Source: Alphaproteobacteria bacterium (GTDB taxonomy: Bacteria; Pseudomonadota; Alphaproteobacteria; M2410). Taken from it: DNA of 64,000 bases. Below are positions 41 through 53,557 of the stretch, one piece after another. Each line of letters opens with the position of its first letter. The first letter of the stretch is position 1. Under the pieces are notes generated by a model. The model saw only the letters and a program-made list of their open reading frames with translations. It was not told the DNA's origin and did no database searches. Location of the stretch: positions 153,091-217,090 of the forward strand of contig OZ252216.1 in the NCBI GenBank assembly GCA_965248915.1, written 5' to 3'. The position numbers were made by a program, and so were the translations under genes.

Positions 41-850
41 TCAATTGCCTTCAAAGATGGGTTTTTCTTTAGCGACAAAGGCGTCATAGGCCCGCACGAA
101 ATCTTGCGTTTGCATGCAAATCGCTTGCGCTTGCGCCTCGCACTCGATTGCCGTGTCGAGGCTCATATCCCACTCAATGTTGAGCTGGTTCTTCGTGAAT
201 GCGTTTGCGAAGTTGGGGCCGGATGCCAATCGTGTCGCCATGTCCATGGCATCGCCGAGGAGTGCATTATGCTCGCAGAGTCGATTGAAGAACCCCCATC
301 GTTCCGCTTCTTCGCCTCCGAGCGACCGGCCGGTGAACAAGAGTTCCGCCGCCCGGCCTTGCCCAATAATGCGAGGCAAGATGGCACATGCGCCCATGTC
401 ACATCCCGCCAGTCCGACGCGATTGAACAGGAAGGCTGTCTTAGAGCGCGATGTCCCCAAACGAAGATCCGAAGACATGGCAATAATTGCGCCCGCACCC
501 GCACAAACACCGTCGATTGCCGCGATGATGGGTTGCGGCGCATGACGCATGGACTTGACCAGGTCACCGGTCATGCGGGTGAACTTCATGAGCTCCGTCA
601 TGTCCATTTTGGTGAGCGGACCTATGATCTCGTGAACGTCTCCGCCGGAACAGAAGTTCTCTCCCGCACCTGAAAAGACGATCGCTTTAACATTGTCCGC
701 GTAGACCAGGTTCCGAAACAGATCCCGCAACTCTGCATAGGAGGCAAAGGTCAGCGGGTTTTTGCGGTCCGGTCGATTCAACGTCACATGCCCAACGCCG
801 TTGTCGAAGCTCCATTTAAAGTGTTGGGGGGCGAAATTTGTCGGATCCAT
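41..850 (-). CDS. enoyl-CoA hydratase/isomerase (crotonase) family protein
   Basis: 269-aa ORF. Crotonase-fold signatures in the translation (…[15 protein letters not shown]…, …[15 protein letters not shown]…). The antisense ORF 14..673 has no recognisable family. Confidence 0.85.
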
Positions 851-934: not shown

Positions 935-1693
935 CTACATGATTTCGCCGCCGGCAAGTGTCAGGGCCTGTCCAGTCAGCGAGGTGACATTGTTTGAGCA
1001 GAGCCACAAAACGGTTTCGGCAACCTCTTTTGGATCGACCAGTCGATTCTGCGGATTGAACTTGGTGAATTCGGACAAGACGTCATCACGAGACCGGCCA
1101 GTCTTCTCAACAATCTGGTCGATGAACTCTTGAACCAATTTTGTGTCCGTAAATCCAGGACACACCGCATTGACCCGGACGGGCGACTCCGCAAGTTCTA
1201 CAGCCAAGGCACGTGTCAACCCGATGACCCCATGCTTGGCTGCTGTGTAAGCGGACGTGTAGGCATACCCCTTAAGGCCCGACGTGCTCGCAATGTTGAT
1301 GATGTGTCCGGCTTTGGACTTCTTGAGACTCTTGAGAGCAGCTCGTGTGCACAGGTAAGTTCCGGTGAGATTAACATCCAACATCGCTTGCCACAAATCG
1401 AGGTTTGTCTTCTCAAAGGGCGCCGACTGCGCGGCACCCGCATTGTTGACCAGGATGTCAATGTCGCCGTTTTGTGAGATGACATTTTGAAAGGCCGAGT
1501 CGACGACCGCAGGTTTAGTTAAGTCCATGCCAATTGCGACTGCCTTTGGCAATTTTTTGGCCACCTTCTTCGCACGCTCGACGTCGCGAGCCAGAATACT
1601 AATAAATGCACCCTTAGTTGCGAGCGCTTCTGAAATAGCGCGTCCAATTCCGGTTGCCCCACCGGTAACAACGGCATGTCTACCAGTTAGCAA
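935..1693 (-). CDS. SDR-family NAD(P)-dependent oxidoreductase
   Basis: N-terminal TGGATGIG Rossmann motif, NNAG, and catalytic Y-x3-K (YTAAK). Length of 252 aa is typical of classical SDRs. Confidence 0.88.
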   Translation of the reverse strand: MLTGRHAVVTGGATGIGRAISEALATKGAFISILARDVERAKKVAKKLPKAVAIGMDLTKPAVVDSAFQNVISQNGDIDILVNNAGAAQSAPFEKTNLDLWQAMLDVNLTGTYLCTRAALKSLKKSKAGHIINIASTSGLKGYAYTSAYTAAKHGVIGLTRALAVELAESPVRVNAVCPGFTDTKLVQEFIDQIVEKTGRSRDDVLSEFTKFNPQNRLVDPKEVAETVLWLCSNNVTSLTGQALTLAGGEIM

Positions 1694-1925
1694 AGTTTTC
1701 CTACCTCAATGAAATACTAAGACGCTCTCAAGCCCGAGATACGGAATTGGCTTAGCACACCACGTATGAATTGTCAGGCGCGACAGCCATCGCGGTTTTA
1801 CATAATGTGAGTAGGTAAGTATTTGAGTATTAATCATGTATTGGCATAGCTTTTTGTATACAACGATGGGGCGTCCAAAAAGTGGGCGCTAAACAACTTC
1901 TCACCAATGTGTTTCAACTGGCACC

Positions 1926-2960
1926 ATGGTAAAATCACTACTCCACAATATCCTTAGTGCGGCAGCGGATGCCTCACAAAGCCAGGGAAAGAGAAAAAGT
2001 CACTGGGGCACGCTCATTCGTGTTGCTGTGACAATTGGCATATTTGCGGCGTTGTTCAGCTGGCTGCCGATTGAGGTCCTGATTGAGGCAATTGCCTCAA
2101 TCCCCCTGCATATTTGGGTCTTTGTCGTTGGCCTGGTGCTAGTCAACCACTTTGTTTCCGCCATGAAGTGGCGGCTACTACTTTCGGCCGCAGGAACACG
2201 AATACTCAGAACGAGTGCCGTACAAGCTCATGGAGCGGGTCTGTTTGCAACAATCTTTCTCCCCGGCAATGTTGGTGGAGACTTTGTTCGCGCCGCCGTA
2301 ATAGCACGGCAAAAGAAAGGGCAAATGGGAGCGATCGCAGTCGGCGGGATGGGTGACCGTGTCAATGACCTGGTTGCTCTCGTGTTAATTTCGTTTGTGG
2401 CGAGTTTGTTTCTGCCCGAAATCGAGAATTCAGCCTACGGCAATGTTCTATCAATAGTGACAGCGGCAATATTATTAGGTGTGATTGTTGGGTCTTGGAC
2501 CATTCTCAAATTTCCACTAGATCGTTTGCCAGTGCAACTGTCGAATGTAGTCACGAAACTTCGTGATGCCTTGAGATCTCTACTGGCTGAGCCCCTCGCC
2601 GGAGCGATTGGTCTTTTCATGTCCATCGTGATTCAGTGCATTTTCGTATTTCTGAATATCGTCTTTGCAAAGAATATGGGACTCGAAGTTCCCATTGTGC
2701 TTTGGTTCTTCGCCTGGCCGATGACCAAGCTCATCGCTCTTGTTCCCATTAGTTTGGGGGGGTTGGGTGTGAGAAATGCAGTTCTCGCCGGACTAATGGC
2801 ACCGTTCGGGATTGCGTCGAGTCTGGTCGTTGCGCAATCACTATGTTGGGACGCAGTGATGATCTTAACAGGTCTCGCAGGTCTGGGCGCCGCCGCTGTT
2901 CCATCGAGCAATAATGTGAGGCCCTCTGGACCTTCTATGAGTGACGTAGGGAACGACTGA
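1926..2960 (+). CDS. UPF0104 / lysylphosphatidylglycerol-synthase-TM-region (flippase-like) family membrane protein
   Basis: 344 aa with about 8 hydrophobic helices. Family-typical KWRLLL and GGDFVRA motifs. Same family as MprF N-domain / YbhN / HpnL. Confidence 0.65.
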   Translation: MVKSLLHNILSAAADASQSQGKRKSHWGTLIRVAVTIGIFAALFSWLPIEVLIEAIASIPLHIWVFVVGLVLVNHFVSAMKWRLLLSAAGTRILRTSAVQAHGAGLFATIFLPGNVGGDFVRAAVIARQKKGQMGAIAVGGMGDRVNDLVALVLISFVASLFLPEIENSAYGNVLSIVTAAILLGVIVGSWTILKFPLDRLPVQLSNVVTKLRDALRSLLAEPLAGAIGLFMSIVIQCIFVFLNIVFAKNMGLEVPIVLWFFAWPMTKLIALVPISLGGLGVRNAVLAGLMAPFGIASSLVVAQSLCWDAVMILTGLAGLGAAAVPSSNNVRPSGPSMSDVGND

Positions 2961-3306
2961 GGATTGGAATTGTCTAAAAACCACACCAAGAGTCGGTGAA
3001 TTAACGATTTTTCCTCCCACGGATGATCGAAATCGACCATCACCACCGCAACGCCAACGATCACCAGAGATGTGCCTGATAGAGGCAACGGGCTCGAATT
3101 TTGCATTCCCATAGCTCTGAAATCTGGGATGAATATAGGACAACGGGGGGCTCTTGAGTCCTTATTAGGAAATTAGGCGTTGAATGTTATCCAAGGCCTG
3201 GGTCTAATCGTCTTTAACTGGGTCATTTGGGTTCTAGATACACGCATTTGTGTACGATTTCGGGAATACCTGAGTAAAAGCGTAGGGAATTGAGTTAGGG
3301 GAAGTA

Positions 3307-4983
3307 ATGAAAATCGCACTTTGTTATCCATCACTTTTGCCGGGTGAACGGCCGAGTTACGGTTTGCCGCCAATGGGTATTCTTTATATTGCGGCAGAGC
3401 TGCAATTGGCGGGGCACACAGTAACCGTTGTGGACTCTGATATCGAAGGATTGACTGCGCAAGAAACGGCGGAGTGCATTTTGGCCTCTGACCCGGATCT
3501 TATCGGGTTCAGCATTATGACGCCTCAGGTTCCCTGTTGTTTGCAAGCCTGTCATATTTTGAAGCGTGAACGCCCCGATATTCCCATCGTCATTGGCGGC
3601 GCCCATATCGCATCGACCCTGGATGACATCTTCACTCAAAGTGATGACTTCGATTTCGTGATCAATGGCGAGGGCGAGGTTACGATGCTCGAAGTTTGCG
3701 CCAAGATGCGTGAACAGAAAGTTCCAGAGTGTCTAGTGGGCGTCCCTGGCGTCATGTACCGCAAACCAGATGGTAAGGCCAAGATCAACCAACCACGACC
3801 CTTCTTTAAGGATCTCGATGAGTTGGCACCAATTGATTATTCATTGGTGGATGTTTTCAAATACAAAATCCCGACCCTACCTGGGCCGCCAGTTGTTGGC
3901 TTGATGATCACGCGCGGGTGTCCGTTCAAGTGTACATACTGTGATGCACCGACGACAACCGGTCGCAAAATCAGATATCATTCGCCGAAACGCGCGGTCG
4001 AAGACATTGTGCGGCTTAACAAACAATTCGGCGTGCGAGGATTTTCTTTCCGCGACAGTACCTTTACGGCGTCAAAGAAATGGACCAAGGAATTCTGCGA
4101 ACGTCTTATTGATAGCGGTGTCAAAATCGCTTGGCGTTGCAACACGCGCGTCGACTGTGTCACCGAAGAACTTCTGATGCTCATGAAGAAGTCAGGCTGT
4201 CACACCATCAATTTCGGTGTGGAATCCGGACACCCAGACATTCTGGCGCGCATCAAGAAAGAAGTGAAGATTGACCGGATTTACGACGCTCATAAATGGA
4301 CGCGAAAAGCCGGAATCAGAACTTACACGACATTTTTGGTCGGTTCACCCGGTGAGACCGATGAAACAATACGTGAGACAATAGAGGTAGCAAAGCGAGC
4401 CAGGCCGAGCATGGCCATGTTCTTTGTGACCATTGGATATCCAGGAACCGAAATGTACCGCGAAGCCGTTCAAGAGGGCCTCATCGAACAAGGATGGTGG
4501 AACAAGCAACGCTGGGACAAAGATGTGAACAGCGCATTCGAAAAACGGTGGGGCTGGTCGGCCGATGCAGGGTCGTTACATCTTGAAGGCTTCGATTCAC
4601 AAGGCTGGCAGCGTCGCGCCACACGCGAGTTTTACCTTCGTCCCAGATTTGTACTAGACACATTGATCTTCACTTTGAAGAACCCGTATTTCCTAAGGCA
4701 CGTTATTGTCCTATCGAAAGAAGTCCTGCCTCTGCACAAATTGCGTCTTCCTTGGAAGAAGTCCAAAATCAATGAAGATCATAAAGTCTATTCCCGTTGT
4801 CCGGAAGCTGCGACATGGGATTACAAAGAACGTGATGACCTCCCAGCTCTCACCATTACATCAAGTGGTGCTGTGAAGCGGACCGAAGAGGACATCAAAA
4901 TCCCGAAGGACATTCCTCCCGTCACCTTGGCCGACAGTGGTTTGGTGGAGCTGCGTGCAGGCAAGACGCAAGCAGCGGAATAG
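3307..4983 (+). CDS. B12-binding-domain radical SAM protein (paralog A)
   Basis: N-terminal cobalamin-binding Rossmann segment (KIALCYP…GILYIAAEL…VTVVD). Radical-SAM Cx3Cx2C (GCPFKCTYCDAP). About 120-aa C-terminal extension with WWNKQRWD…RWGW and RCPxxxxWDYKxRD motifs. Confidence 0.85.
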   Translation: MKIALCYPSLLPGERPSYGLPPMGILYIAAELQLAGHTVTVVDSDIEGLTAQETAECILASDPDLIGFSIMTPQVPCCLQACHILKRERPDIPIVIGGAHIASTLDDIFTQSDDFDFVINGEGEVTMLEVCAKMREQKVPECLVGVPGVMYRKPDGKAKINQPRPFFKDLDELAPIDYSLVDVFKYKIPTLPGPPVVGLMITRGCPFKCTYCDAPTTTGRKIRYHSPKRAVEDIVRLNKQFGVRGFSFRDSTFTASKKWTKEFCERLIDSGVKIAWRCNTRVDCVTEELLMLMKKSGCHTINFGVESGHPDILARIKKEVKIDRIYDAHKWTRKAGIRTYTTFLVGSPGETDETIRETIEVAKRARPSMAMFFVTIGYPGTEMYREAVQEGLIEQGWWNKQRWDKDVNSAFEKRWGWSADAGSLHLEGFDSQGWQRRATREFYLRPRFVLDTLIFTLKNPYFLRHVIVLSKEVLPLHKLRLPWKKSKINEDHKVYSRCPEAATWDYKERDDLPALTITSSGAVKRTEEDIKIPKDIPPVTLADSGLVELRAGKTQAAE

Positions 4984-5009
4984 GTTTGCAGAAATCCAAA
5001 TAGAAGAAA

Positions 5010-5040
5010 GGACCGGAGAAATCTTCGGCCCTTTTTGTTT
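5010..5040 (+). terminator. putative intrinsic terminator between the convergent radical-SAM genes
   Basis: GGACCGGA-GAAAUC-UUCGGCCC hairpin (8 bp, one mismatch, one G-U) followed by UUUUUGUUU. Sits 27 nt after the stop of paralog A, with paralog B converging from the other side. Confidence 0.35.
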
Positions 5041-5067
5041 ATTCTTCTTGTGTTACCGAAACCGTTC

Positions 5068-6669
5068 TTACTCGCTCACCGTCAGATGTGAATTCGCGTC
5101 ACTGCGCTTCTTATAATCCCAGTTGGGCTGCGACGGACAACGCTCAAGTATTTGCAGGCGTTCATCTTCCTTGATCTTCTTTTGCGGTAAGAGATTGCGC
5201 AATTTGTAGAAGGGAAGAACTTCAAATCCAAGATTCCACAAATGCCTCATGAAATAAGGGTTCTTCAACGTGAAAATTCCCGTGTCCCAAATAAAGCGTG
5301 GACGCATGTACCAGGCTCGGGTTGCCTTGCGTTGCCACAACTCCGCGTCAAATCCGTTCTTGAAGGTAAGGGCGCCTGCATCTGTCCAGCCCCAACGGAC
5401 TTGGAAGGCAGAGTTCTTTGAGGCGTCAAATTCTTGTTTGGCCCACCACCTGGGTTGAACCTCGCCGGCCACGAGTGCCTCATCATACATCGGCGTTCCC
5501 GGATAGGCCGTTGAAACGAAGAACATGCAGAGGCTTGGCCGAACGCGTTTGGAGAAATCGAGTGTATTTTGAGCGCTTTCTTCTGTTTCCCCAGGATTGC
5601 CAATAAGGAATGTCGCGTATGTCCGGATGCCCAATTTGCGGCAGCGCTCAAAGGCATCAACGACCTCTTCGAGATCAACTTCTTTCTTGATGCGCTTCAA
5701 GACTTCCTGGTCACCGGATTCAACGCCAAAGTTGATGACGTAGCAACCGGCCTCGGCCATGAGGTCAAGAAGACCAGGTGGGACGAGATTTGCACGGGTG
5801 TTGCAGCGCCATTTGATATTGAGATTTTCGTCGACCAACCGTTGGCAGAACTCCTGCGCCCACTTCTTCTTTGCGGTGAAAGTTGAGTCCTTAAACACGA
5901 AATTGGTGACACCGTACTTCTCTTTGTAGAACTTGATGTCTTCAATCACTCGGTCAATGGACCAAAATCTGAGCTTGGTTCCCATAGTGATCGGTGCGTC
6001 ACAGAATGTACATTTGAATGGACAACCGCGGGACAACATCATTGAAACCACATAACCACCCGCCATGGTCGGAATGCTGTACTTCTTAATATCGACCATG
6101 TCGTAGTCGACCGACGGAAACTCATCGAGATTGCGGGTAAACGGACGACCGAGGTTGACCTGGACTTTGCCAGTCTCTTTGTCGCGGTAAATTATGTTGG
6201 GCACATCTTCGATGCACTCTTGGAAATTGGTGTAGCCTTCTTCGGTCTTTACGCCCTTGTCGCGCAAGTTTTGGCAGGCCTCAAGCAGCGTGTACTCGCC
6301 TTCACCGTGAACGGCAAAATCGAAACAGTCAGCCATTTCGTATGTGTCACCCTTAGTGGAGTCGACATGAGCGCCTCCAAGTACGACGGGAAGGTCAGGA
6401 CGGGCTTCTTTAATCAGTGTCGAACATGCCAGCGCTGTAATCAGCTGCGGCGTCATCATGCTAAAGCCGATGAGGTCCGGTTCGCTTTCTAAGACGCGCA
6501 CGACCGTTTCTTCCACAGAAAGACCGTCGATGTCCGCGTCGATCACTTCGACGTCGAAACCATTCTCCTTCAACAAGGCCGCAATGTACAAGACGCCCAA
6601 GGGTTGCAGCCCGTACTTTGCTTTGTGTCCCGGTACCAATGCCGGATAACAGAGAGTGATCTTCTTCAT
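5068..6669 (-). CDS. B12-binding-domain radical SAM protein (paralog B)
   Basis: Same architecture as 3307..4983 (KITLCYPALVP…GVLYIAALL…VEVID; GCPFKCTFCDAP; C-terminal RWWAKQEF…RWGW and RCPSQPNWDYKKRSD). Clearly homologous but diverged, roughly 55-60% identity by eye. Confidence 0.85.
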   Translation of the reverse strand: MKKITLCYPALVPGHKAKYGLQPLGVLYIAALLKENGFDVEVIDADIDGLSVEETVVRVLESEPDLIGFSMMTPQLITALACSTLIKEARPDLPVVLGGAHVDSTKGDTYEMADCFDFAVHGEGEYTLLEACQNLRDKGVKTEEGYTNFQECIEDVPNIIYRDKETGKVQVNLGRPFTRNLDEFPSVDYDMVDIKKYSIPTMAGGYVVSMMLSRGCPFKCTFCDAPITMGTKLRFWSIDRVIEDIKFYKEKYGVTNFVFKDSTFTAKKKWAQEFCQRLVDENLNIKWRCNTRANLVPPGLLDLMAEAGCYVINFGVESGDQEVLKRIKKEVDLEEVVDAFERCRKLGIRTYATFLIGNPGETEESAQNTLDFSKRVRPSLCMFFVSTAYPGTPMYDEALVAGEVQPRWWAKQEFDASKNSAFQVRWGWTDAGALTFKNGFDAELWQRKATRAWYMRPRFIWDTGIFTLKNPYFMRHLWNLGFEVLPFYKLRNLLPQKKIKEDERLQILERCPSQPNWDYKKRSDANSHLTVSE

Positions 6670-6973
6670 TCGTAAACTCCTGAACCCCTCGGGCCACCCA
6701 AGGCCAAGTACACATTACTTGATAGGGCAGCCAAGCGCCACCTTGGGAAATCACATAATCCGCAATCTTCTAATAGCGATTTCTAAGACTTATACCGCTG
6801 GCAACGTTACCAAATTGATACAACATGTCTTTCTCGCCTGGATCGGGAGGTTCCCAAGAATGTTCGCCCCACAGAACATGCGCCACCCTGAAACGATGGC
6901 GTATTTTCAACAAATGGCTAAAGCAAGCAACATGCCACGGATGGCGTGAATAACCCTTGTCCGTGTGGTGATA

Positions 6974-8638
6974 TTAGGTGGTCAATCCGTCCTGAAATTC
7001 CGGTTCCTCTGATGGCAGAAAGGATCTGCCCAGAACCGCATCGGACATTTTTTCTGCAATCATGATGGTCGGCGCATTCGTATTTCCACTGACGATGGTC
7101 GGCATCACCGAAGCATCAATCACACGCAAGTTTCCGATTCCCCGCACACGGCACGTTTCATCAACAACCGCCTTGTCGTCGTGACCCATTTTACAGGTTC
7201 CAACGGGGTGATAGTCCGTCTCCATATTCTCTGAAATATGTCGATCAATATCATCATTTGATTGAGCTCTATCGCCTGGCCAAATTTCCGCACCTCGGTA
7301 GGGGTCCATGGCGGGTTGGGCGATGATTTGACGGGTCAACTTCACACCGGCTCGCATGGTCTGAATGTCTACTCTTGTGTCTAGATAATTTGGATGAATT
7401 CCTGGCGCGTCATGTGTTGATGGAGACTTCAAACAAATACGACCGCGGCTCTCGGGCCGCAATTGGGTAACGTGAACCAGAAATCCATGCCGTTGTCCTC
7501 CTTCAATCGGTTGTCGGCCATGATCCTTCATCAATCCTGCAACAAACTGTAATTGAACATCTGGGATTCCAAGCTCCGGGCGTGTCTTGATAAACCCGCC
7601 CGCTTCAACTGGGATGGCAGCTGCTGGTCCTGTCTTGGTGAGAAGATATCGCAAGCCGACGCCAAACCGCCGAAATCGATTGGTCGAGTATTTGTGGTAC
7701 GTGACAGGCTTCAAACATTCGTACTGGACAAAATAATCCGCATGGTCTTGCAAGTTCTCCCCAACCCCCGCGAGGTCGGTGATACAAGGAATGCCAAACT
7801 CACGTAGATGTTCTGCCGGTCCAATGCCGGACGCAAGAAGAAGGTGAGGGGACCCAACCGCCCCCGCGCTGCATATAACCTCGTTCGATGCGGTAAGGGT
7901 CAGTTGCTCGCTGTCCTTTGAAATCAAGACGCCTGTCGCCCTCTTGCCCTCAAAGACGATCTTTTCTGCATGAGAATTTGTGAAGATGGAGAGATTGTCG
8001 CGACCCATCGCTTGCTCCAAGTAGGTGCTGGCCGTGCTTGCGCGCTCTCCTTTGTGGATGGTGAATTGATAGTGACCGACACCTTCTTGATTAGGACCAT
8101 TGAAGTCTGGGTTGTGCTTGTATCCTGCTTGAACACCTGCTTGAACACCTGCTTGCACAAAGGCCTCAAAGAGGTGCAAGTCAGTACTCGCATCTGAAAC
8201 ATTGAGGGGGCCATCATCGCCGTGCAGTGGGTCGGACTTAGAGTTGTTGCTTTCAGAGCGCTTGAAATAGGGAAGGCAGTCCGCAAACCCCCACCCGGTA
8301 AGCCCCATCTGTCGCCATTGGTCGTAGTCCAAGCGATTACCGCGAATGTAGATCATGCCGTTGATCGAAGAAGAGCCTCCAAGCACTTTGCCACGCGGCC
8401 AATAGAGTTTGCGATTGGCAGTCTTGGGGTCAGGTTCCGTCTCAAAAGACCATTTGTGATCCGCGTTCGATAGGATGGTACCCATACCCGACGGCATCTT
8501 GATCAATGTGTGATTGTTTGCCCCACCAGCTTCGATAAGCGCAACGCGATGTTGACCGCCATCGCTCAAGCGATTGGCCAGCACGCACCCAGCGCTGCCT
8601 GCGCCGATGATGACGTAGTCGAATTGAAGGTCTGACAT
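6974..8638 (-). CDS. GMC-family FAD oxidoreductase (choline dehydrogenase-like)
   Basis: N-terminal [22 protein letters not shown] motif and GMC signature regions. Length 554 aa. Lies 4 nt downstream of the MFS gene on the same strand. Confidence 0.85.
8124..8159 (-). repeat. in-frame 12-nt tandem repeat x3 (cctgcttgaaca) inside the GMC oxidoreductase gene
   Basis: Read directly from the sequence: two perfect copies and one one-mismatch copy. Encodes [11 protein letters not shown] in the protein. Confidence 0.8.
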
Positions 8639-8642
8639 CTAC

Positions 8643-9998
8643 TTATCCCTTTGCCCCTGCCGAGGCGGGGTCTTCAAGTACCTTTTCACGAGTCTTAGCA
8701 TCTAACCAGAGGAGCCCAAAGAGAGGAGGGATTGTAAGGAAGGCGTAAATCGCGCCACCAAGGGCAATTGTTCGGATGGACACGCCGGCGTCCAACAAAT
8801 AGCCAAAGCTCGCGGGCGCCAATCCTGTAGCGAGAACCATAACGGCGGAAATCATAGATCGGATGGCGCCAAGATGCTGTACCCCGTAGAGACCTGGCCA
8901 AAGTGCGCCCGAAATGGGAATGCTAATTCCAACCGCGACCCCCGATAGGGCGTAGAATGCCCAAATGCCGGTGAAACTGTCTGAGAGACTAAGTGTCAGA
9001 ATGGACAGGGCGAGAAGCAAGGCGGAAACTGGATAGAGTTTAAGAAACCCGATCCTGTCGACCCACGGACCCAGTCCAAGGGATCCGATCATCTTTGCAA
9101 TCGCAAAAGCGGTGAAACAACCGGCAATGAATTCAAGGCTTAGTCCGGATTCGCTGGCAAGAGATGCCTGGTGGAAAAAGAGCCCCGTCAGCAAGTAAGG
9201 TGACCCCAACATAGCTGGCAGCAACAACCAAAACCGCGTGTCGCGAATGACCTCCCCACGTGTCCATTGTTTGTGCCACTGAACAGGCTTGCCTTTATGC
9301 GATCCATTCGAATTGCGAACATTCTCATAATGTAGTTTGAGGTCGCGGCGATTGGCCTTGAGTAAGAACAGTGCAACGGGAAGAAAGACAAACGCGATGA
9401 AAGCCGCGATCGAAAGCCAAGTGAAACGCCAGCCGACAAGTCCCAGCATGGCGACAACGCAAATGGGCATGGCGGCTTCTGCGGTTGCAAATCCCATGGA
9501 GGCGAGGCTTGCCGCCTTGGCGCGATTGTTATGAAAATACCGCGCCATCGTGGTGGATGACGTATGACCCATCAACGCTTGGCCAAGATGACGGATGCCG
9601 AAGATTGCAATGGCGAGAACCGCAACGTGGAAAGCCAAACCGACCAATGCCGCCGCGCCTGCAAAGAGGAGGCTGAAGACCACAATCGTCCGTCGCACGG
9701 TCCATCTATCGATGAGCTTGCCCGTCCAAAAGAAAACACCCGCGCTCACCAAGGTTGCTGTCGAAAAGATGAGGCCAAAGTCGCCGATCGAAATGCCAAA
9801 ATGACCTGCAATGTCGTCTCGAAACAGACCGACGAAAAATGTCTGGCCAGGTCCCGAGAGTGCCGTCAATAGAAAGCCAAAACCAAGAAGTGGCCAATCC
9901 TGCTTGATGAATTTCCAATACGTCACTTGGCTGGACCTTTTGCTCAGTCGGCATCGCTGACCATCTGAGGGCAGAGAGGCATTTAGTCTCGGAATCAA
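8643..9998 (-). CDS. MFS transporter
   Basis: About 12 predicted TM helices and MFS-like loop motifs. The track start at 9998 is TTG. An in-frame GTG about 72 nt downstream (…VTYWKF…) with an upstream AAGG is an alternative start. The stop lies 4 nt before the GMC start, implying an operon. Confidence 0.7.
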   Translation of the reverse strand: MIPRLNASLPSDGQRCRLSKRSSQVTYWKFIKQDWPLLGFGFLLTALSGPGQTFFVGLFRDDIAGHFGISIGDFGLIFSTATLVSAGVFFWTGKLIDRWTVRRTIVVFSLLFAGAAALVGLAFHVAVLAIAIFGIRHLGQALMGHTSSTTMARYFHNNRAKAASLASMGFATAEAAMPICVVAMLGLVGWRFTWLSIAAFIAFVFLPVALFLLKANRRDLKLHYENVRNSNGSHKGKPVQWHKQWTRGEVIRDTRFWLLLPAMLGSPYLLTGLFFHQASLASESGLSLEFIAGCFTAFAIAKMIGSLGLGPWVDRIGFLKLYPVSALLLALSILTLSLSDSFTGIWAFYALSGVAVGISIPISGALWPGLYGVQHLGAIRSMISAVMVLATGLAPASFGYLLDAGVSIRTIALGGAIYAFLTIPPLFGLLWLDAKTREKVLEDPASAGAKG

Positions 9999-10052: not shown

Positions 10053-10615
10053 CTAGGTGACGCAGGCTTCAATAGAAGAACCGATAGGTTCGCCAAACCT
10101 ATTTGGACATAGAATGGGGGCTTTACACAATGGGATTAGCTCGTTCTGAAGAAAATCAACAAAGGTCTCAGCTTCTCCTGCGGTTGGGAAAACAAGATCA
10201 ACGCCTGAGTTTTGGGTCGGTGTATAGTCTCGATCACGGTCTACGTTCTCGATACCGACAACAATCACTTGTGGAATCCTAATGCCGGCAACTTCGTCAT
10301 ATGAATAGAATCGTGCGTGCGAGCTTGCAAGATGGAATAGCCATTCGCCATCCAATACGTAGAGCACAGGATATTTCTTATCCCTCCGGCTGTACCCTTC
10401 TGGCAACTGAACATAGATGCGGCGAGTTTCGTCGAGTACGGTGGAATAGAAGTCCACTGTCTCACCTGGATTGGGCATTCCTTGAATGACAGACACATTA
10501 TTGTGAGCGTTCTGAGACATTTGGTCAGCTTGTTCGACTGCCGCTCCGCCCGAGCAGCCTGTAAGAAAGATCGCCAAAAAAGTTGTGTCAGAGTTCCACG
10601 TTTAGAATTTCCCAT
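10053..10615 (-). pseudogene. decayed lipoprotein esterase (putative esterase / enterochelin-esterase family) remnant
   Basis: The frame 10053..10577 encodes the lipobox LTGC plus esterase-family core (YVLDGEW…DRDYTP…FLQNELIPL) but stops before the GxSxG nucleophile. The ATG at 10613-10615 opens a different frame (MGNSKRGTLTQLF…). One extra A in the A6 run (10576-10581) would fuse it into a canonical signal peptide MGNSKRGTLTQLFLAIFLTGC. Only about 55 nt separate the stop from the MFS start. Confidence 0.45.
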
Positions 10616-21576: not shown

Positions 21577-23199
21577 CTAAGCGGTTGGGTGTGACCCATT
21601 GGCGCGAGATGGTGCTTTGCGCGTGCTGCTTGTCTTGCGTTTCGTTTTAGCTTTCGCCTTCGTTTTTGCCTTAGCTTTAGCCTTCGATTTAGCTTTTGGC
21701 TTTGCTTTGGTTTTCGGTCTTGCAGATTTTTTGGCCACAGGTTTCTTCAGCGGTTTTTCCTCTTCGCCCTGGCCCAATCCATGAAGGAAGAGGGTTCTCA
21801 CATCCGCAATGTGTTTCTCGAGATTCTTCACATCCCAATCCTTAGTCGAAATGGGTGGTAGAACTTTGACTTCAATCGTTGTCGGTCGGGCGATGGCCGA
21901 TCCTTTGGGCATGGCATCCGTTGTATTCATCAAAAGGACCGGAACGATGGGCGCGTCTGCCTGCATCGACAAATGAAACCCGCCTTTCTTAAACGGTCCT
22001 AGCTTGTTGGTGACACTCCGGGTTCCTTCCGGCGCCATCATGACCGAAATGCCTGACTTCAACCCATCAATGGCTGGTTTGATAGCCTCGATGGCTTTTT
22101 CTGTATTGGAACGGTCAACAAAGAAAGTTCCAAGGGCGCGCGCCACCTGGCCGATTACAGGTTGTTTGCTGATCTCGATCTTTCCAATAGGGGCAAAGTC
22201 ACGCTTCAAGAGCTTGATCATGACAATCGCGTCAACAGCGCTTTGATGATTGAACATGAAGATTGCGGGTCGATGGGACCACAGGTGTTCTTCACCTTCC
22301 GTATTGATTCTAAGGCCTGTCGAGGCTGCCGACAATTCGCCCCAAACGGAATTGAAGATGTTACGTGCTTGCCAGGGGGAGCGGTTAAGCGCATAGGCCG
22401 ACAACGCTGCCGAGGCCGCAACCATGGAAGAACCATAAGCGAGCCCCGTACGCACGACATCCATTGTTGAAGGTGTGCCGCGGCTATCAAATCTGGTGAT
22501 GGGCCAGTCCCGTTCCTCTGCGATGCGCGTGAGCTTGCGTCCCGGATTAAGAGGGCGGGGATACTTCACCGCGTCTAGGAGTGGCAAATCCTCTGAACCG
22601 TCGGAATAGAAGTAGCTCTTAAGGAGGTCGGCGCCTTTTTCATCGCACAAAGCTTGAGCGGCCACGAGTTTTCCTTCGCCGTAACAGGCAGGTTCGATAA
22701 TGCGGCCAGTACAAACGCCGTTCTCAACTTCTAAATGATTGCAGAGAACGTTGTCGATGCCAAAGTCTTCGGCAACAGGGTCGACCTGATACGACGTCGC
22801 CGAAGAGACGATGGCAACAGTGTGCCCTTTGCGGAAGTGTGCCTCGATCAACCCGCGTGCTTCAGGATAAATCCGTGCGGCGACGCGTTCATCAAAGACT
22901 TTGCGTCCAAATTCGCAATTGGTTTCATCAAGCTGACCGCGCAAGGATGAGATCGTCGCGTTGACCCACTCGGTGAAGTCAATTTTGCCGCGCGCGAACT
23001 CCGTTGAAACGGCGACCCCGTCAATCAGCTCCGGGATCGACATATCACCTTCTTTGAGGCGCTCAACGAACAAGTCTTGAGCTGAAAACCCTGCCAGGAC
23101 GGTCTTGTCCATGTCGAAAAAGGCACCGACGGTCGAGCCTGAGGGGCCATCTTCGATGTCCCGCAACAATGTTTGATAGGTCGCCATAATTCTTCCCAA
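21577..23199 (-). CDS. bifunctional HAD-IB family phosphatase / 1-acyl-sn-glycerol-3-phosphate acyltransferase (PlsC-like) with Lys/Ala-rich basic C-terminal tail
   Basis: N-half has HAD motif I FFDMDKTV and motif IV …YSDGSEDLPLL. C-half has the LPLAT H(x4)D motif (NHQSAVD) and EGTRS motif. The last about 50 aa are KAKxK repeats. The start lies 4 nt after the plsB stop. Confidence 0.75.
   Translation of the reverse strand: MGRIMATYQTLLRDIEDGPSGSTVGAFFDMDKTVLAGFSAQDLFVERLKEGDMSIPELIDGVAVSTEFARGKIDFTEWVNATISSLRGQLDETNCEFGRKVFDERVAARIYPEARGLIEAHFRKGHTVAIVSSATSYQVDPVAEDFGIDNVLCNHLEVENGVCTGRIIEPACYGEGKLVAAQALCDEKGADLLKSYFYSDGSEDLPLLDAVKYPRPLNPGRKLTRIAEERDWPITRFDSRGTPSTMDVVRTGLAYGSSMVAASAALSAYALNRSPWQARNIFNSVWGELSAASTGLRINTEGEEHLWSHRPAIFMFNHQSAVDAIVMIKLLKRDFAPIGKIEISKQPVIGQVARALGTFFVDRSNTEKAIEAIKPAIDGLKSGISVMMAPEGTRSVTNKLGPFKKGGFHLSMQADAPIVPVLLMNTTDAMPKGSAIARPTTIEVKVLPPISTKDWDVKNLEKHIADVRTLFLHGLGQGEEEKPLKKPVAKKSARPKTKAKPKAKSKAKAKAKTKAKAKTKRKTSSTRKAPSRANGSHPTA
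21600..21745 (-). repeat. imperfect short tandem repeats (gcyttrgcyttcg-like) encoding the Lys/Ala/Pro-rich tail
   Basis: Visible on the + strand as repeated gctttagccttcg / gcttttggctttg units. Translation on the minus strand gives KPKAKSKAKAKAKTKAKAKTKRK. Confidence 0.6.
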
Positions 23200-23202
23200 A
23201 CC

Positions 23203-25569
23203 TCAGTCTTCTTGGCGGCTTAGCACCATTGTGACGATAATGTCGAGTCGGCGGGAGATATCTCGCATATCCTGCGCCCATTGAACCCGCCGTTCGGCCA
23301 CTTCCGCGCCGCCCTCGTCAAGCCCGCGATTGGTGGCGAGTTTTAAGCCCGTTTCATAAAGGCTTTTGGAAACTGATTCTTCCGAGAAAATCCGACTTTG
23401 CAAATACATCTGCTTTCCAAGTTTGATGCAGTCAGCCAAAAAGGACTTGGCGTCTTCAACCGGCTCAGATCCGAGGCGACAAAGAGCTTGAGCCACAACC
23501 GAATAGGCATCCGTGAAAGAACGAAGAACTCCCTGGGCCACAAGGGGTCTTGTTTCATCAAGCGCATCGCGCGCTGCATGACCGCCCTCTCTGAGAGCCG
23601 CTTCCCAACTCTTCGTGCGCGCTTTGAGTTCAGAATCAACTTCCGCCCGAAACTCGTCTTTTGGCGGGAAGTAAAACTCAAACTTCAACAAATCTCTCAA
23701 CGCTTCCACTTCACGCCAGAACACCAGCGCGCCGTCTTCACTAGGACGATCCGAGACCTTCATGAGCGCCAGCTCAACAATGGCATCGACAACAAAGAAG
23801 TGAATGATGGTATTTCGGTAATACGCCGCTTTGAGATACTCACCGCGACATATTGCGTAGACCTTCTCAAGTCCCTCTTCGTAACAGGTTACCACCCCAT
23901 TGCGGGTCAACTGTTCAAGCGTTAGCTCAATGGCTTCGAGGGTGTCGAGCTCTAGAGGTCCGGCTGTCGGAAACTGCCGACGATTGACGACTTCCATCCA
24001 GGATTGAATGGTCCGCTGAATACCTTTGAGGGTGCGCGCTCGTGTGCTATTGGCGAGGAGGGACAGTGTTACCAATGAAGTGGCCGTTATGGGAGTGACC
24101 TCATTGATACGAACGGCGACTTGGAAAGCGAGCTTTTGTACGGCTTCGGTTTTTTGGTCTGCATTGAGGCCGTCATTGAGGCGCTCTGGGGGAACAATGT
24201 CAGGAAGACGAAGCGGTTCGCCAAAGCGCAAGAAGATGCGGCCGAGCTTTTGCTTGGAGCGGAGGAACTTTGCGATCCAAGCCATGCCCTCTGGCTTCTT
24301 GTCGAGCCCTCGCTGTTCGCGAATATAGTCATCGACTTCATTGATCTGATCATAGGCAATTGTGACCGGAACAAATGTGACGTCATAGCTCTTGTTTCTC
24401 AGGATCGATTCAACGAAGTAATTGAACATGCCATACCGTGGCGGCAGCAGTTTTCCGGTTCGAGACCGTGTTCCTTCAAATGCCCAAACAAACGAAAAGC
24501 GCTTGTCGACCATATAGTCAATGTAACGCCGGAATGTTGCCTTGTAGGTTTCATTGTCTTGGAAACTGCGCCGAATAAAGATGACACCAGCGTTCTTGCC
24601 AAGGGCGCCAAGGCCAAAGGTATTGAGATTGATGCCGCCGAAAGCCATGGGCGGCGGCAGATTGTTGTCAAACAAAGTGACCGACAAAGCGACCGTATCG
24701 AGCATTGACTTGTGAGTGACCAAAAAGACCACAGGCCTTGAGGTGAGCAAGTCGCGAACTTCTTCCAACTGCCCTTTGTCATAGTCAATTTCAGGATCGT
24801 ACGTACTCACATACATGGCGCGTTGCAGCGCAATGAAGCAATCGAGTGTGAACGGGTTTTGAGCTGCCGCCATTTCTTTGAGATACGCTTCGGCTTTCTC
24901 GCGGACCTGCGGTAAGTCAGCATCGCCCGACTGGGAAATATCAACCAGCTTCTTTTGATAGGTTTGGTCCGAGAAGACGTCACTAGTGAGAAGTTTCGGC
25001 ACCTTGTATCTCGCGCCGCGCAAGACACGTTCGGCTCGTTCCAAGACGACGGCGGCCTGACGCAAGACAAAATCGCTCAGAGTGCTGTCATCAAATTCCG
25101 CTGAACCCCAATCGTCTTCAAATTGGCGTCGCACATCGCTCAAATGGGCGCCGAGACCTGCAGCACATTTTACCCGGTCAGGATGTCTCTTGAGCAGCCA
25201 GCGCCCTCTAAATCTTCCAGGGTGTTGAACGATCCCGGCAAAGAGGTCTTGAACGAGGGGAAATCTTTTCTCCGCGCTGCTTTGCCCAAGCCACACCACG
25301 CGCACCGGTTGGAGCCAGGGGTCATGGCCATATTGCGTGGTACTTTCAATAACCGATGATAGGTCGCTTTGGGCATCCCCACCAATATTGCAAAATGAGT
25401 GATCGACATTTTCGCCGTCGGAATGGTCCGCGATCCATTTCTTGAGGATCTCGTCTTCCAGATCATTCGCCGCATCCAACAGAAAAATAACCTGAGCTTT
25501 GCCTGCCCAAGGGCCAGTGGAAGTTTCTTGATCAACGGCGGTTTCGTGCAAGATGGTCGTTTGACTCAT
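23203..25569 (-). CDS. plsB: glycerol-3-phosphate 1-O-acyltransferase
   Basis: 788 aa, the same size as E. coli PlsB (807 aa). Contains VTHKSMLDTVAL (H(x4)D) and FEGTRSRTGKLL motifs. Confidence 0.85.
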   Translation of the reverse strand: MSQTTILHETAVDQETSTGPWAGKAQVIFLLDAANDLEDEILKKWIADHSDGENVDHSFCNIGGDAQSDLSSVIESTTQYGHDPWLQPVRVVWLGQSSAEKRFPLVQDLFAGIVQHPGRFRGRWLLKRHPDRVKCAAGLGAHLSDVRRQFEDDWGSAEFDDSTLSDFVLRQAAVVLERAERVLRGARYKVPKLLTSDVFSDQTYQKKLVDISQSGDADLPQVREKAEAYLKEMAAAQNPFTLDCFIALQRAMYVSTYDPEIDYDKGQLEEVRDLLTSRPVVFLVTHKSMLDTVALSVTLFDNNLPPPMAFGGINLNTFGLGALGKNAGVIFIRRSFQDNETYKATFRRYIDYMVDKRFSFVWAFEGTRSRTGKLLPPRYGMFNYFVESILRNKSYDVTFVPVTIAYDQINEVDDYIREQRGLDKKPEGMAWIAKFLRSKQKLGRIFLRFGEPLRLPDIVPPERLNDGLNADQKTEAVQKLAFQVAVRINEVTPITATSLVTLSLLANSTRARTLKGIQRTIQSWMEVVNRRQFPTAGPLELDTLEAIELTLEQLTRNGVVTCYEEGLEKVYAICRGEYLKAAYYRNTIIHFFVVDAIVELALMKVSDRPSEDGALVFWREVEALRDLLKFEFYFPPKDEFRAEVDSELKARTKSWEAALREGGHAARDALDETRPLVAQGVLRSFTDAYSVVAQALCRLGSEPVEDAKSFLADCIKLGKQMYLQSRIFSEESVSKSLYETGLKLATNRGLDEGGAEVAERRVQWAQDMRDISRRLDIIVTMVLSRQED

Positions 25570-25626
25570 TGGCTGTTCGTTTCCTCACCGACTTCTCAAA
25601 TATGAAGTGGGATCAATACAGTTGAA

Positions 25627-27063
25627 CTACTTGGCGGTCTTCAATTTTGCGAAAGCCGCTTTTCTCAATTCGTTGTAAGATTGGTCAATGCACTCAGCGT
25701 AAAAATCAGGGTCAGGAAGATGTTCCCGACAAGCTGTTATAGAAATCGTTAGCGTGTTCTTGTGGCTGGTCACCGCGTGGAAAATGCCCATGCCGTCTCC
25801 AAGCGGCGCCATGCCGTACCCGGCGACGAGCTTTGCGCCAGCAAAGAAGATATCCATGGGAAGTCCGGGGACATTCGACACGAATGTATTGCAGATAGGC
25901 CGCATTTTGGAGATCCATTTCATACCTTCAGCACGGCGAAAAGTTGCCGACGCGAGGGCAGGGCTCAAAATGCCGGATATATGGGAGAGAAGATCGGGGC
26001 CGCGAACCGCAGCCATTCGCTTTGCGTCCTGAGTTCGGATGCGAATGGCTTGAAGTCGCGCGATGGGATCTTCTATATCCGTGCCCATGGCAACAGCCAT
26101 ATCTGAAATCTGGTTTCCTCCATCCCCTTCAGCCCCTTCGGTTCTGACCGAGATCGGGCACATCGCCACCAGCGATGTTTTCGGAAGTTCTTCTTTTGCC
26201 AATAGGTAGCGTCGCATCGCGCCGGCGCAAATGGCAATGGCGGCATCATTGATGGTCGCACCATTGATCGCTTTTCTGAATTTTCGAATGTCTTCGAGCA
26301 CATACTCGCGCCCCTCAAAGACGCGGTGCACCGATACCGGTTCGTTAAAGCGCGTGCGTGGGACGGAGGGACTCTTTAGCAGACGTTCCTGCCGTCGCGA
26401 CCGACCGGCTTTGAGTTCTCCGCGAATGAGCGCGGATGTGTGTCCGATCGACGTGAGCGGTTGCTGAACGAGATTTGGCAGAGCGCGCGTAAGCAGAGCG
26501 GCATCCGTGGGCAGGCTTTCATCTGTCCCATCAAATGAATCGGTTCCTTTGTCACGCGAGGCCTCTGGATCAAGTTCGTGTATGGCCTCCATAAGTGCGA
26601 TCGCCGAGACTCCATCTGTGAGGATGTGATGGATCTTGATGAGGACTGCAAAACTACCTTTCGGGATGTTGTCAATATTGTCTAAGCCGCCAATGACATA
26701 CATCTCCCACATCGGACGATTCATATCGAGAGGTCGGGAATAGATGCGGGCCAAGAGAATGCACAGCTGTTTCCAATCGCCTGGCTTTGGCAAGGCGATG
26801 TGGCGAACATGAAATTCAAGGTCAAAATCAGGATCATTGGCGAGATACGGCAGATCCAAGTCCATGGGTACGCGGACCAGTTTCTGCCGAAACGGCTCCC
26901 AGAGGTGCAGGCGCTCCCGCATATACTGCAGGATCTCCATGAACCTTACTTTGCCGCCTGGCGCCGAAGAGGGATCATAGATAGAAACACCACCGACGAC
27001 GCTCGGCGTATGCGGTGTATCCGCATAGAAGAAGACGGCATCTGTGTTGGAGATTTGCTTCAT
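25627..27063 (-). CDS. wax ester synthase / acyl-CoA:diacylglycerol acyltransferase (WS/DGAT) family
   Basis: HHILTDGVS active-site motif (HHxxxDG). 478 aa with a typical WS/DGAT N-terminus MKQISNTDAVFFYADTPHTP. Confidence 0.85.
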   Translation of the reverse strand: MKQISNTDAVFFYADTPHTPSVVGGVSIYDPSSAPGGKVRFMEILQYMRERLHLWEPFRQKLVRVPMDLDLPYLANDPDFDLEFHVRHIALPKPGDWKQLCILLARIYSRPLDMNRPMWEMYVIGGLDNIDNIPKGSFAVLIKIHHILTDGVSAIALMEAIHELDPEASRDKGTDSFDGTDESLPTDAALLTRALPNLVQQPLTSIGHTSALIRGELKAGRSRRQERLLKSPSVPRTRFNEPVSVHRVFEGREYVLEDIRKFRKAINGATINDAAIAICAGAMRRYLLAKEELPKTSLVAMCPISVRTEGAEGDGGNQISDMAVAMGTDIEDPIARLQAIRIRTQDAKRMAAVRGPDLLSHISGILSPALASATFRRAEGMKWISKMRPICNTFVSNVPGLPMDIFFAGAKLVAGYGMAPLGDGMGIFHAVTSHKNTLTISITACREHLPDPDFYAECIDQSYNELRKAAFAKLKTAK

Positions 27064-27227
27064 ACCCGGCCTTCAGATTCGACAACCACACCATGGAACG
27101 CTAGATTCCAAGGACATTGTGCCCAATATGCGGCTGTAAGTGTAGGTTTTTGTTTTTGCAGAGCCACGCCACGATGAAGCGCTGTTCCATGTCGCTGGTT
27201 CGGCTGTGGTTGACGTAAGGGGAAACT

Positions 27228-53039: not shown

Positions 53040-53480
53040 TTAGCCTGTGGCGCGGCGACGATCCCGACGGCTTTGTGCCGGTTGGTAAGCTAGGCGCGCG
53101 TGAGCGCTGCAATACGGTGACCCCGCCGTTGTATTGTTTCCACAAAAATGAAATTCATTTGAACCCGGATCGCCAATAGGCCAACGACACATCGACGAAC
53201 TCAATGTCATGACGGTTGCAAACTCACCATTTTCAAGTGTGGCCTCCTCGATGATTTCAGGTTCGCTCACCACGGGTTTTGGCTGCGGCTTTGGGATAGT
53301 CGCGCGTCTTGGCCGATCAACCCGGCTGGTTGTGGCGCGTCCAGACAGTCCCAAACGGTGAACTTTGCCAATCACAGCATTTCGGGTTACATCGCCCATT
53401 GTGCGGGCAATTTGGCTGGCGCTGAGGCCCTCGGCCCAGAGCTTTTTCAGTTGTTCGACCCGATCTTCGGTCCAAGCCAT
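53040..53480 (-). CDS. gcrA: cell-cycle transcriptional regulator GcrA
   Basis: MAWTEDRVEQLKKLWAEGLSASQIARTMG…NAVIGKVHRLGL is the diagnostic GcrA N-terminal DNA-binding domain. ATG at 53480. Confidence 0.85.
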   Translation of the reverse strand: MAWTEDRVEQLKKLWAEGLSASQIARTMGDVTRNAVIGKVHRLGLSGRATTSRVDRPRRATIPKPQPKPVVSEPEIIEEATLENGEFATVMTLSSSMCRWPIGDPGSNEFHFCGNNTTAGSPYCSAHARLAYQPAQSRRDRRRATG

Positions 53481-53557
53481 ATTCGTCTCCGTAATGCGGC
53501 CCCGAAAGGGGCGAATTTGGTTCGTGGGGGCTCGAGAGCAAATGCACGCTTTCAGAG

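Follow-up and report, generated by a model that had tools for sequence, protein, structure and literature searches.

The characterised lipid-acting B12-binding radical S-adenosylmethionine (SAM) enzymes HpnP, HpnR, GrsA/B and Gmm modify hydrocarbon skeletons (PMC13459092), and for two further radical SAM enzymes, HpnJ and Cds, contraction of the ring of a lipid-attached hexose has been proposed (PMC13459092, PMC9092360). HpnJ belongs to the hpnI-hpnJ-hpnK-hpnL system, which takes bacteriohopanetetrol glucosamine to a cyclitol ether; HpnJ domains occur only in genomes that also encode squalene-hopene cyclase (SHC) and HpnH, and the function of HpnL is still unknown (bioRxiv 10.1101/2025.07.29.667474). 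UPF0104 proteins, to which HpnL is related, are proposed flippases of head-group-modified lipids, among them GpgF and HexF (PMC12713373) and the MprF domain and E. coli YbhN/PplT (bioRxiv 10.1101/2022.03.11.483950). Here we describe a locus in a 64,000-nucleotide (nt) stretch of DNA from an Alphaproteobacteria bacterium (assembly GCA_965248915.1, contig OZ252216.1, positions 153,091 to 217,090 of the forward strand; hereafter the window), in which a UPF0104 gene stands next to two paralogous genes for B12-type radical SAM enzymes, called rSAM1 and rSAM2 below.

As in hpnIJKL, a B12-binding radical SAM enzyme here adjoins a UPF0104/LPG_synthase_TM protein, and an initial annotation of this DNA, which proposed a candidate membrane-lipid tailoring locus, had pointed to that resemblance; a genuine hpnI-hpnJ-hpnK-(LPG-synthase-domain) operon retrieved for comparison bears the resemblance out. 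From the gene context of related loci in other genomes, we give about an even chance to a somewhat different reading, in which the two radical SAM enzymes would modify the sugar head group of a lipid by radical chemistry before the UPF0104 protein would flip the product. Judged by sequence and by conservation in other genomes, the predicted functional unit consists of three genes, which are listed here together with the one transcription feature between them:

1926-2960, plus strand: UPF0104/LPG_synthase_TM (MprF-flippase-domain-like) polytopic membrane protein, 344 amino acids (PF03706)
3307-4983, plus strand: rSAM1, class-B (B12-binding domain) radical SAM protein, 558 amino acids, clade A (PF02310 and PF04055)
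5068-6669, minus strand: rSAM2, class-B radical SAM paralog, 533 amino acids, clade B (PF02310 and PF04055)
5013-5028, plus strand: putative terminator-like hairpin with a following T-run, within the 84 nt that separate the convergent genes rSAM1 and rSAM2 (from a consensus scan only)

The two radical SAM enzymes and their family

By their domain content, rSAM1 and rSAM2 are members of the class-B radical SAM superfamily, and both are predicted to bind cobalamin. The B12-binding domain PF02310 scored 80.7 bits in rSAM1 and 85.7 bits in rSAM2 and the Radical_SAM domain PF04055 scored 99.8 and 97.3 bits, respectively, all above the Pfam cutoffs; these were the only two domains detected in either protein at E-values up to 0.001, and DUF4070 (PF13282) was not among the matches. 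The CxxxCxxC cluster motif (C205/C209/C212 in rSAM1 and C216/C220/C223 in rSAM2) is invariant across the family to which both belong. The two proteins are paralogs of 52-53% identity, and neither contains a transmembrane segment, so that both are predicted to be cytoplasmic.

Neither protein reached the cutoff of any curated NCBIfam model, the best match being BchE for rSAM1 and HpnJ for rSAM2. On the HpnJ model (TIGR03471) rSAM1 and rSAM2 scored 205.8 and 207.7 bits against a cutoff of 577.6, and on the BchE model (TIGR02026) 210.6 and 181.6 bits against 481.35. The rSAM2-HpnJ alignment spans profile positions 46-468 of 472, and HpnJ is the only named model to align the C-terminal region as well, and only for rSAM2, whereas the BchE alignments cover only positions 18 to approximately 394 of 497. 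Other models gave 198 and 201 bits (ApyD, cutoff 750), 157.6 and 129.8 bits (the ladderane-type lipid B12 radical SAM model TIGR04072, cutoff 360), 136.5 and 130.7 bits (AprD4, cutoff 500) and 126.5 and 100.2 bits (HpnR TIGR04367, cutoff 650); for neither protein did the list of the 25 best families include an HpnP model. Genuine HpnJ from the Mycetohabitans megaplasmid operon used for comparison is 29-31% identical to rSAM1 and rSAM2, and annotated HpnJ proteins on Burkholderiaceae megaplasmids are 28-31% identical to rSAM2. The comparisons that the initial annotation had pointed to (HpnJ, HpnP, HpnR, BchE and DUF4070) agree in placing both enzymes outside the characterised clades, and the public labels 'BchE', 'anaerobic Mg-protoporphyrin IX monomethyl ester cyclase' and 'YgiQ' are automatic, unsupported and, to judge from these scores, wrong for these genes.

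An AlphaFold2 model of rSAM1 (pLDDT 78, pTM 0.82) shows the class-B fold. Its best fold match in the PDB is the apramycin radical SAM 1,2-diol dehydratase AprD4 (6fd2; TM-score 0.72, target), followed by the methylases MgmA, TsrM, CysS and TokK and also by OxsB. AprD4 is likewise the best PDB match by sequence (phmmer, E = 5.8e-31, over the radical SAM core only) and acts on an amino sugar, although the identity in the structural alignment is approximately 20% and the AprD4 substrate is a soluble aminoglycoside. Since the closest named family (HpnJ) and the best fold match (AprD4) both act on amino sugars, we counted these matches in favour of a sugar substrate.

A search of 1.84 billion cluster representatives listed at least 150 clusters of relatives. 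At 50% clustering the rSAM family has a single full-length representative; its next relative, P0214, is 43% identical, and the rest reach at most 39% among the matches listed. The family set comprises 46 full-length members from metagenome-assembled genomes (MAGs) and from metagenome contigs without a taxon label, and the MAGs are labelled Alphaproteobacteria, Methylococcaceae/Methylococcales, 'Deltaproteobacteria', Myxococcota, Pirellulales, Sedimentisphaerales, Planctomycetota, Vicinamibacterales/Acidobacteriota, Eiseniibacteriota and Spirochaetaceae; a partial family gene occurs in one Acidimicrobiia MAG. Pairwise identity among the 46 members is 45-95%, with a median of 58%. There are 85 invariant columns, 42 of which, including a Trp-rich C-terminal motif, are not found in HpnJ. 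A plasmid collection held no member of the family (all matches were below 60% identity, the best at approximately 30%).

In a neighbour-joining tree rooted on HpnJ, the family divides into clade A, with rSAM1 and Pirellulales genes, and the more widespread clade B, with rSAM2. Pairs made up of one gene from each clade are found in the window and in L001, L003, L005, L006 and L027, and paralog pairs of any kind in ten loci in all (the same six together with L028, L035, L036 and L044), in keeping with the earlier remark that lipid-acting enzymes of this kind typically come as pairs. The closest relative of the whole locus is L001, from an Alphaproteobacteria MAG, whose clade-A gene is 88% identical to rSAM1. 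For rSAM2, identity is up to 85% with a gene from a Spirochaetaceae MAG and 79-83% with genes from 'Deltaproteobacteria' and Acidobacteriota MAGs.

Two further observations concern individual members of the family. In two long-contig Acidobacteriota MAGs (L020, 9950-11595, and L021, 10001-11578) the family gene is broken over two to four frames, which may reflect assembly frameshifts or pseudogenes. In Methylococcaceae and 'Deltaproteobacteria' MAGs, clade-A genes are followed by SLT-domain (lytic transglycosylase) proteins of FHA-SLT or SBP_bac_3-SLT type (L002, 3023-4546; L005, 8975-10456); these neighbours hint at a cell-wall connection, and no such gene lies beside rSAM1 in the window.

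Gene neighbourhoods in other genomes

Species-representative genomes supplied 21 and metagenomes 28 of the 49 family loci whose flanks were compared by clustering of open reading frames (ORFs), tblastn and profile hidden Markov models (HMMs), and partners were counted by HMM in those 24 loci that are 6.6 kb or longer. The commonest partner is a GT-C glycosyltransferase, present in 18 of these loci, or 19 with a divergent PMT beside the Spirochaetaceae gene (L014); in 16 of the 24 it is of the ArnT/PMT-like PMT_2 type. A GT2 resembling polyprenyl-phosphate-sugar synthases stands in 14 loci, UPF0104 in 13 (within 10 kb of the family gene and in several lineages), an amine-oxidase-family flavoprotein in 13, and an LA_3751-like putative glycosyltransferase and a PF01522 deacetylase of ArnD/PgaB type in six each. 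In the 23 loci that have 5 kb or more of flank, tblastn located a nucleoside-diphosphate (NDP)-sugar epimerase/dehydratase 7 times and a membrane protein resembling sulfatases and phosphoethanolamine transferases 5 times. The partner GT2 is similar to the polyprenyl-phosphate glycosyltransferases dolichyl-phosphate hexose transferase, ArnC, AglJ and PpgS. In the Pirellulales operon the order is GT4, PMT_2, GT2, deacetylase, rSAM, PMT_2, GT2, UPF0104, putative glycosyltransferase, flavoprotein, sulfatase-like protein and Wzx-like protein, and the rSAM and PMT_2 genes overlap (an overlap recorded for L009/L023).

The pairing of UPF0104 with B12-type radical SAM genes, which the initial annotation had noticed here, is thus a recurrent one, and more than chance: for a gene present one to three times per genome, a rough estimate of chance adjacency is approximately 1%, as against 13 of 24 loci. 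The partner set as a whole indicates that the normal genomic home of the rSAM family is, by all appearances, a lipid-carrier-dependent glycosylation system. The glycosylation genes in this set (GT-C, GT2, deacetylase and NDP-sugar epimerase) point to a lipid-linked sugar head group as the substrate rather than to a novel hydrocarbon or isoprenoid skeleton. The nearest relatives outside the family lie in comparable surroundings. P0214 sits among GT87, GT2, PMT_2 and DegT genes and beside two more B12-binding radical SAM genes, and distant relatives of 28-36% identity adjoin GT2 and epimerase genes, often in tandem radical SAM arrays. The cluster around P0214, in L096 (5138-16596), comprises three B12-binding radical SAM genes, two GT2, a GT87 GT-C, a DegT aminotransferase, a 970-amino-acid PMT_2-NHL repeat protein and a fusion of FrhB with a methyltransferase, and thus represents a further uncharacterised sugar cluster with several radical SAM genes.

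These neighbourhoods also bear on the substrate that was first proposed for the locus. If the pair methylated or cyclised the hydrocarbon part of a lipid (an acyl chain, a hopanoid or other isoprenoid, or a polyprenyl carrier) that UPF0104 then handled, it would join the characterised lipid-acting enzymes, which work on hydrocarbon skeletons (PMC13459092). The lack of any sugar-handling gene beside the trio in the window and in L001 would fit, as would the weak similarity (39-62 bits) of the partner flavoprotein in other loci to HpnE and CrtI-type isoprenoid desaturases. We nevertheless consider this unlikely. Both the HpnR and the ladderane-type models are missed by a wide margin, the recurrent partners are sugar genes and not genes of isoprenoid or fatty-acid synthesis, and no shc or hpn gene was seen in the window or in any annotated locus. 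The earlier proposal of a lipid or isoprenoid-like skeleton is probably wrong, a head-group sugar being the likelier substrate. The initial annotation is confirmed in its observation and partly supported in its interpretation.

Related loci such as L009 also cluster a GT2 and a deacetylase, a further likeness to hpnIJKL, but the differences from that system are considerable. HpnJ is only 28-31% identical to the window enzymes, the scores on its model are approximately 207 bits against 577.6, and it lacks 42 of the 85 residues that never vary in the family. The deacetylase of the related loci is PF01522 and not of HpnK type, a GT-C is present in them and not in hpn clusters, neither shc nor hpnH was seen with the rSAM family, and the window UPF0104 protein has no BLAST similarity to the protein in the HpnL position. 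In the window, SHC, hpnH/G and glycosyltransferase genes, which the initial annotation had stated to be absent, and also hpnI and hpnK were all lacking among the ORFs scanned with Pfam (most of the larger ones in the 64 kb), and a search of every stop-to-stop ORF with profile HMMs of the partner families matched the UPF0104 gene alone. The calditol synthase Cds and other enzymes that turn sugars into carbocycles (PtmC) are alike by description only, in that a hexose is rearranged once on the lipid (PMC13459092, PMC9092360); Cds differs in being archaeal and in acting on glycerol dialkyl glycerol tetraether lipids.

A second group of described systems consists of the three-component periplasmic glycosylation systems, namely ArnC/ArnD/ArnE-F/ArnT, the Bordetella Lgm system, the GtrA/GtrB/Gtr-type systems and CsbB/GtcA/YfhO. 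In the related loci, as in these systems, a GT2 that resembles polyprenyl-phosphate-sugar synthases occurs together with a PF01522 deacetylase, a putative flippase and a GT-C of ArnT/PMT type. The loci differ in that the flippase candidate is UPF0104 and not ArnE/F or GtrA-type, and in the addition of a B12-binding radical SAM enzyme and an amine-oxidase-type flavoprotein, a combination that we did not find described in the literature searched. Neither the GT2 nor the GT-C that mark such systems occurs in the window.

The UPF0104 protein of the window is, on sequence, a polytopic membrane protein of the UPF0104/LPG_synthase_TM family, with multiple hydrophobic segments and a PF03706 match of 117.7 bits (cutoff 33.4) over residues 31-317. 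It falls just short of the TIGR00374 'flippase-like domain' model (40.8 bits against 43.2) and far short of the glucosamine-phosphatidylglycerol (GlcN-PG) flippase model (23.1 bits against 320); HpnL (TIGR03476) was not among its NCBIfam matches at E-values up to 0.001, and BLASTP found no match to the Mycetohabitans protein that follows hpnK at the same threshold. Against an HMM of nine rSAM-linked UPF0104 genes, with the window gene among the seeds, it scored 449.5 bits (E = 1e-135), and approximately 90 relatives are detectable. Six orthologs of 44-55% identity were sampled, on contigs of 5-73 kb (L093, L094, L095, L098, L099 and L100, the genes lying around position 8000 in most). In all six a GT2 of approximately 295 amino acids lies immediately 5' of UPF0104 with a 4-nt overlap, and in five a flavoprotein lies immediately 3', while none has a radical SAM gene within 8 kb. 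The conservation of the UPF0104-rSAM pairing, on which the first interpretation leaned, therefore holds when viewed from the rSAM side (13 of 24) and fails when viewed from the UPF0104 side (0 of the 6 sampled).

The core thus appears to be a GT2-UPF0104-flavoprotein cassette which rSAM genes and a GT-C have joined in a subset of genomes. The window, L001 and L013 are reduced in the other direction, in that UPF0104 and one or more rSAM genes are kept and every other partner is missing from the vicinity. The cassette GT2 is highly conserved, with at least 67% identity over its best 120 clusters, among which is one from a cultured species, Cycloclasticus pugetii, and no cassette-type GT2 occurred in the plasmid collection. 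We found no described function for this widespread cassette in the literature searched. A possible analogy, in concept, is the mycobacterial decaprenyl-phosphate-arabinose route (DprE1/DprE2, Rv3789, AftA), in which a flavoenzyme remodels a polyprenyl-phosphate sugar on the lipid before the product is flipped and used by a GT-C; the protein families differ throughout, and that route has no radical SAM enzyme.

The reduced loci raise the question of whether a GT-C step is involved at all. The trio could modify and flip a head-group-modified glycerolipid or hopanoid that simply stays in the membrane, as in gpgSDF (P. aeruginosa GlcN-PG) and hexSDF (C. difficile), where a synthase, a deacetylase and a UPF0104 'flippase' serve an amino-sugar-headed lipid (PMC12713373), or as in hpnIJKL. 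The precedents that we found are indeed end-product lipids, namely lysyl-phosphatidylglycerol, GlcN-PG, the C. difficile aminohexosyl glycolipid, and the BHT-glucosamine/cyclitol ether beside HpnL (PMC12713373; bioRxiv 10.1101/2022.03.11.483950), and the window, L001 and L013 contain no GT-C. Such a system is decidedly unlikely to explain the locus, however, given that GT-C is the commonest partner of the rSAM family (18-19 of 24 loci), that the UPF0104 protein stays far under the cutoff of the GlcN-PG flippase model (23 bits, cutoff 320) and has no match to HpnL, and that neither a synthase nor a deacetylase gene lies beside it. GpgS (GT4) and GpgD (COG3233) are likewise absent here, and the gpgSDF and hexSDF operons contain no radical SAM gene.

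Flanking genes and other features of the window

All genes named in the initial annotation are intact in the ORF listing and supported by the Pfam and NCBIfam scans. Besides the trio, the following features flank the locus:

41-850, minus strand: crotonase
935-1693, minus strand: short-chain dehydrogenase/reductase (SDR)
6974-8638, minus strand: GMC oxidoreductase
8643-9998, minus strand: MFS transporter
6949-6935 and 6901-6881, minus strand: terminator-like sites just 3' of the GMC stop and before the rSAM2 start (consensus scan)

The initial annotation had counted these four genes as part of the locus and had described the GMC and MFS genes as translationally linked. The linkage stands as a tight adjacency and not as an overlap, since the MFS stop lies 4 nt short of the GMC start; the membership does not stand. 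None of the 49 loci has counterparts of the GMC, MFS, SDR and crotonase genes of the window, or of its esterase, NMO and hydrolase genes, in the vicinity of the rSAM gene. L001 keeps the UPF0104-rSAM1-rSAM2 arrangement, at 58%, 88% and 82% identity, within wholly different flanks (formate-dehydrogenase-like, beta-lactamase and transketolase-like genes). The absence of recurrence and the changed flanks of L001 together indicate that the unit comprises three genes only and that the four flanking genes are, in all probability, unrelated neighbours. The terminator-like site at 6901-6881 fits transcription of rSAM2 separately from the MFS-GMC pair.

It could still be argued that the three genes have no functional link in this organism: they might be the remnant of a broken cluster and the enzymes might use something other than a lipid, for instance a peptide in the manner of ApyD or a tetrapyrrole in the manner of BchE, or they might work with the GMC-MFS pair, the SDR and the crotonase as first proposed. 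The ApyD and BchE models match as well as HpnJ does (181-211 bits), the sampled UPF0104 orthologs usually have no rSAM neighbour (0 of 6), the gap between UPF0104 and rSAM1 is long and unconserved, and rSAM2 is convergent. Several observations make this very unlikely nonetheless. The trio is maintained in L001 despite the exchange of both flanks, UPF0104 is present in 13 of 24 family loci, the four flanking genes recur in none of 49, and the BchE and ApyD scores lie far under their cutoffs of 481 and 750. The intergenic regions of the trio contain no conserved small ORF, RNA element, riboswitch or obvious precursor peptide, which also weakens a reading of the locus as one for a ribosomally synthesised and post-translationally modified peptide. 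In the 346-nt gap between UPF0104 and rSAM1 no Rfam match was obtained even at E-values up to 1, and the sole weak Rfam match in the scanned region 1650-7100 was MicC, at 27 bits against a threshold of 90, in the rSAM1/rSAM2 gap.

Other features of the window were recorded in passing. The GMC protein scored 707 bits against 605 on the PRK02106 choline-dehydrogenase subfamily model and 585.7 bits against 732.1 on the BetA equivalog, and the MFS-GMC pair (6974-9998, minus strand) resembles a separate uptake/oxidation unit. MFS genes near L003-L006 and L013 were considered as kin of the window MFS gene and rejected, the best match having an E-value of 0.003 over 58 residues. A 174-amino-acid ORF (10053-10577, minus strand) matches only positions 1-108 of the 251-position PF00756 'Putative esterase' profile and may be a truncated gene or pseudogene. 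A SAM_alpha riboswitch (RF00521; 63361-63442, minus strand; 46.7 bits against a gathering threshold of 36) lies directly 5' of a gene for a Cys/Met-metabolism pyridoxal-phosphate enzyme (62112-63320, minus strand), and a GcrA gene lies at 53040-53621 (minus strand); together these two features mark an alphaproteobacterial source. A glycerolipid/neutral-lipid gene group at 21577-28235 suggests storage-lipid synthesis, and no link between it and the rSAM unit was found; its genes are:

21577-23199, minus strand: HAD-acyltransferase fusion
23203-25569, minus strand: PlsB-type glycerol-3-phosphate acyltransferase with a GPAT_C domain
25627-27063, minus strand: wax-ester synthase/DGAT
27228-28235, plus strand: GpsA

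A putative pathway and its implications

The substrate, chemistry, order of steps and flipping that we infer for the trio could be combined as follows. First, a sugar or amino sugar would be joined to a membrane lipid, most likely polyprenyl phosphate, at the cytoplasmic face by a GT2 resembling ArnC or dolichyl-phosphate-hexose synthases. Second, rSAM1 and rSAM2 would each cleave SAM at a [4Fe-4S] cluster, and the 5'-deoxyadenosyl radical together with cobalamin would alter the sugar head group by C-methylation, by dehydration or deoxygenation as in AprD4, or by contracting the ring to a carbocycle, the reaction suggested for HpnJ and Cds. The presence of two paralogs suggests two positions or two steps on the sugar. 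Third, UPF0104 would flip the modified lipid-linked sugar to the outer leaflet. Finally, the product could remain as a membrane glycolipid, or a GT-C encoded elsewhere in the genome could pass it to an envelope acceptor.

A number of points weigh against such a pathway in this organism. All support for the sugar link comes from gene context in other genomes: GT2, GT-C, flavoprotein and deacetylase genes are all missing from the 64-kb window and from the contig of the closest relative, L001, and no GT2 of the source contig was among the best 120 cassette-GT2 clusters, all of which are at least 67% identical, so that weaker ones may be missed by that list. The 346-nt spacer between UPF0104 and rSAM1 is not conserved in L001, rSAM2 is convergent, and co-transcription is at most putative. 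Sequence and structure do not separate methylase from rearrangement chemistry, and the family has no experimentally studied member. Moreover, at least 150 clusters score 228 bits or more against rSAM2, while rSAM1 and rSAM2 reach only approximately 207 bits on the HpnJ model, which makes the HpnJ likeness generic to this branch of the superfamily and HpnJ merely the closest named family.

More tentatively, the family could make a modified sugar on polyprenyl phosphate or a membrane lipid that has so far not been described, such as a hexosamine with an added C-methyl group or with an oxygen removed, or a carbocyclic 'pseudo-sugar' akin to cyclitol ether or calditol, with the UPF0104 proteins as dedicated flippases and, in the alphaproteobacterial lineage of the window, the two paralogs catalysing two successive radical steps. 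This is possible but somewhat doubtful. The overall logic, in which a sugar is built on a lipid, modified, flipped and transferred, is already well known and akin to that of hpnIJKL and Arn; we found no description of a B12-binding radical SAM enzyme inside GT2/flippase/GT-C glycosylation clusters in the literature searched.

In summary, the UPF0104 gene and the two rSAM genes of the window bring together two poorly understood groups of proteins. Few enzyme groups are as little characterised as the B12-dependent radical SAM enzymes, and the flippase role proposed for UPF0104/HpnL-type proteins on head-group-modified lipids has been shown experimentally only for MprF. The conservation of the rSAM family across Alphaproteobacteria, Planctomycetota and Acidobacteriota argues for one specific, important substrate, and its association with lipid-carrier glycosylation genes suggests an unrecognised modification of bacterial envelope sugars. 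If the more tentative reading is correct, a radical SAM step would for the first time be placed in an envelope glycosylation pathway of GT2/flippase/GT-C type, and the long-unexplained HpnL-type proteins would gain a testable function.

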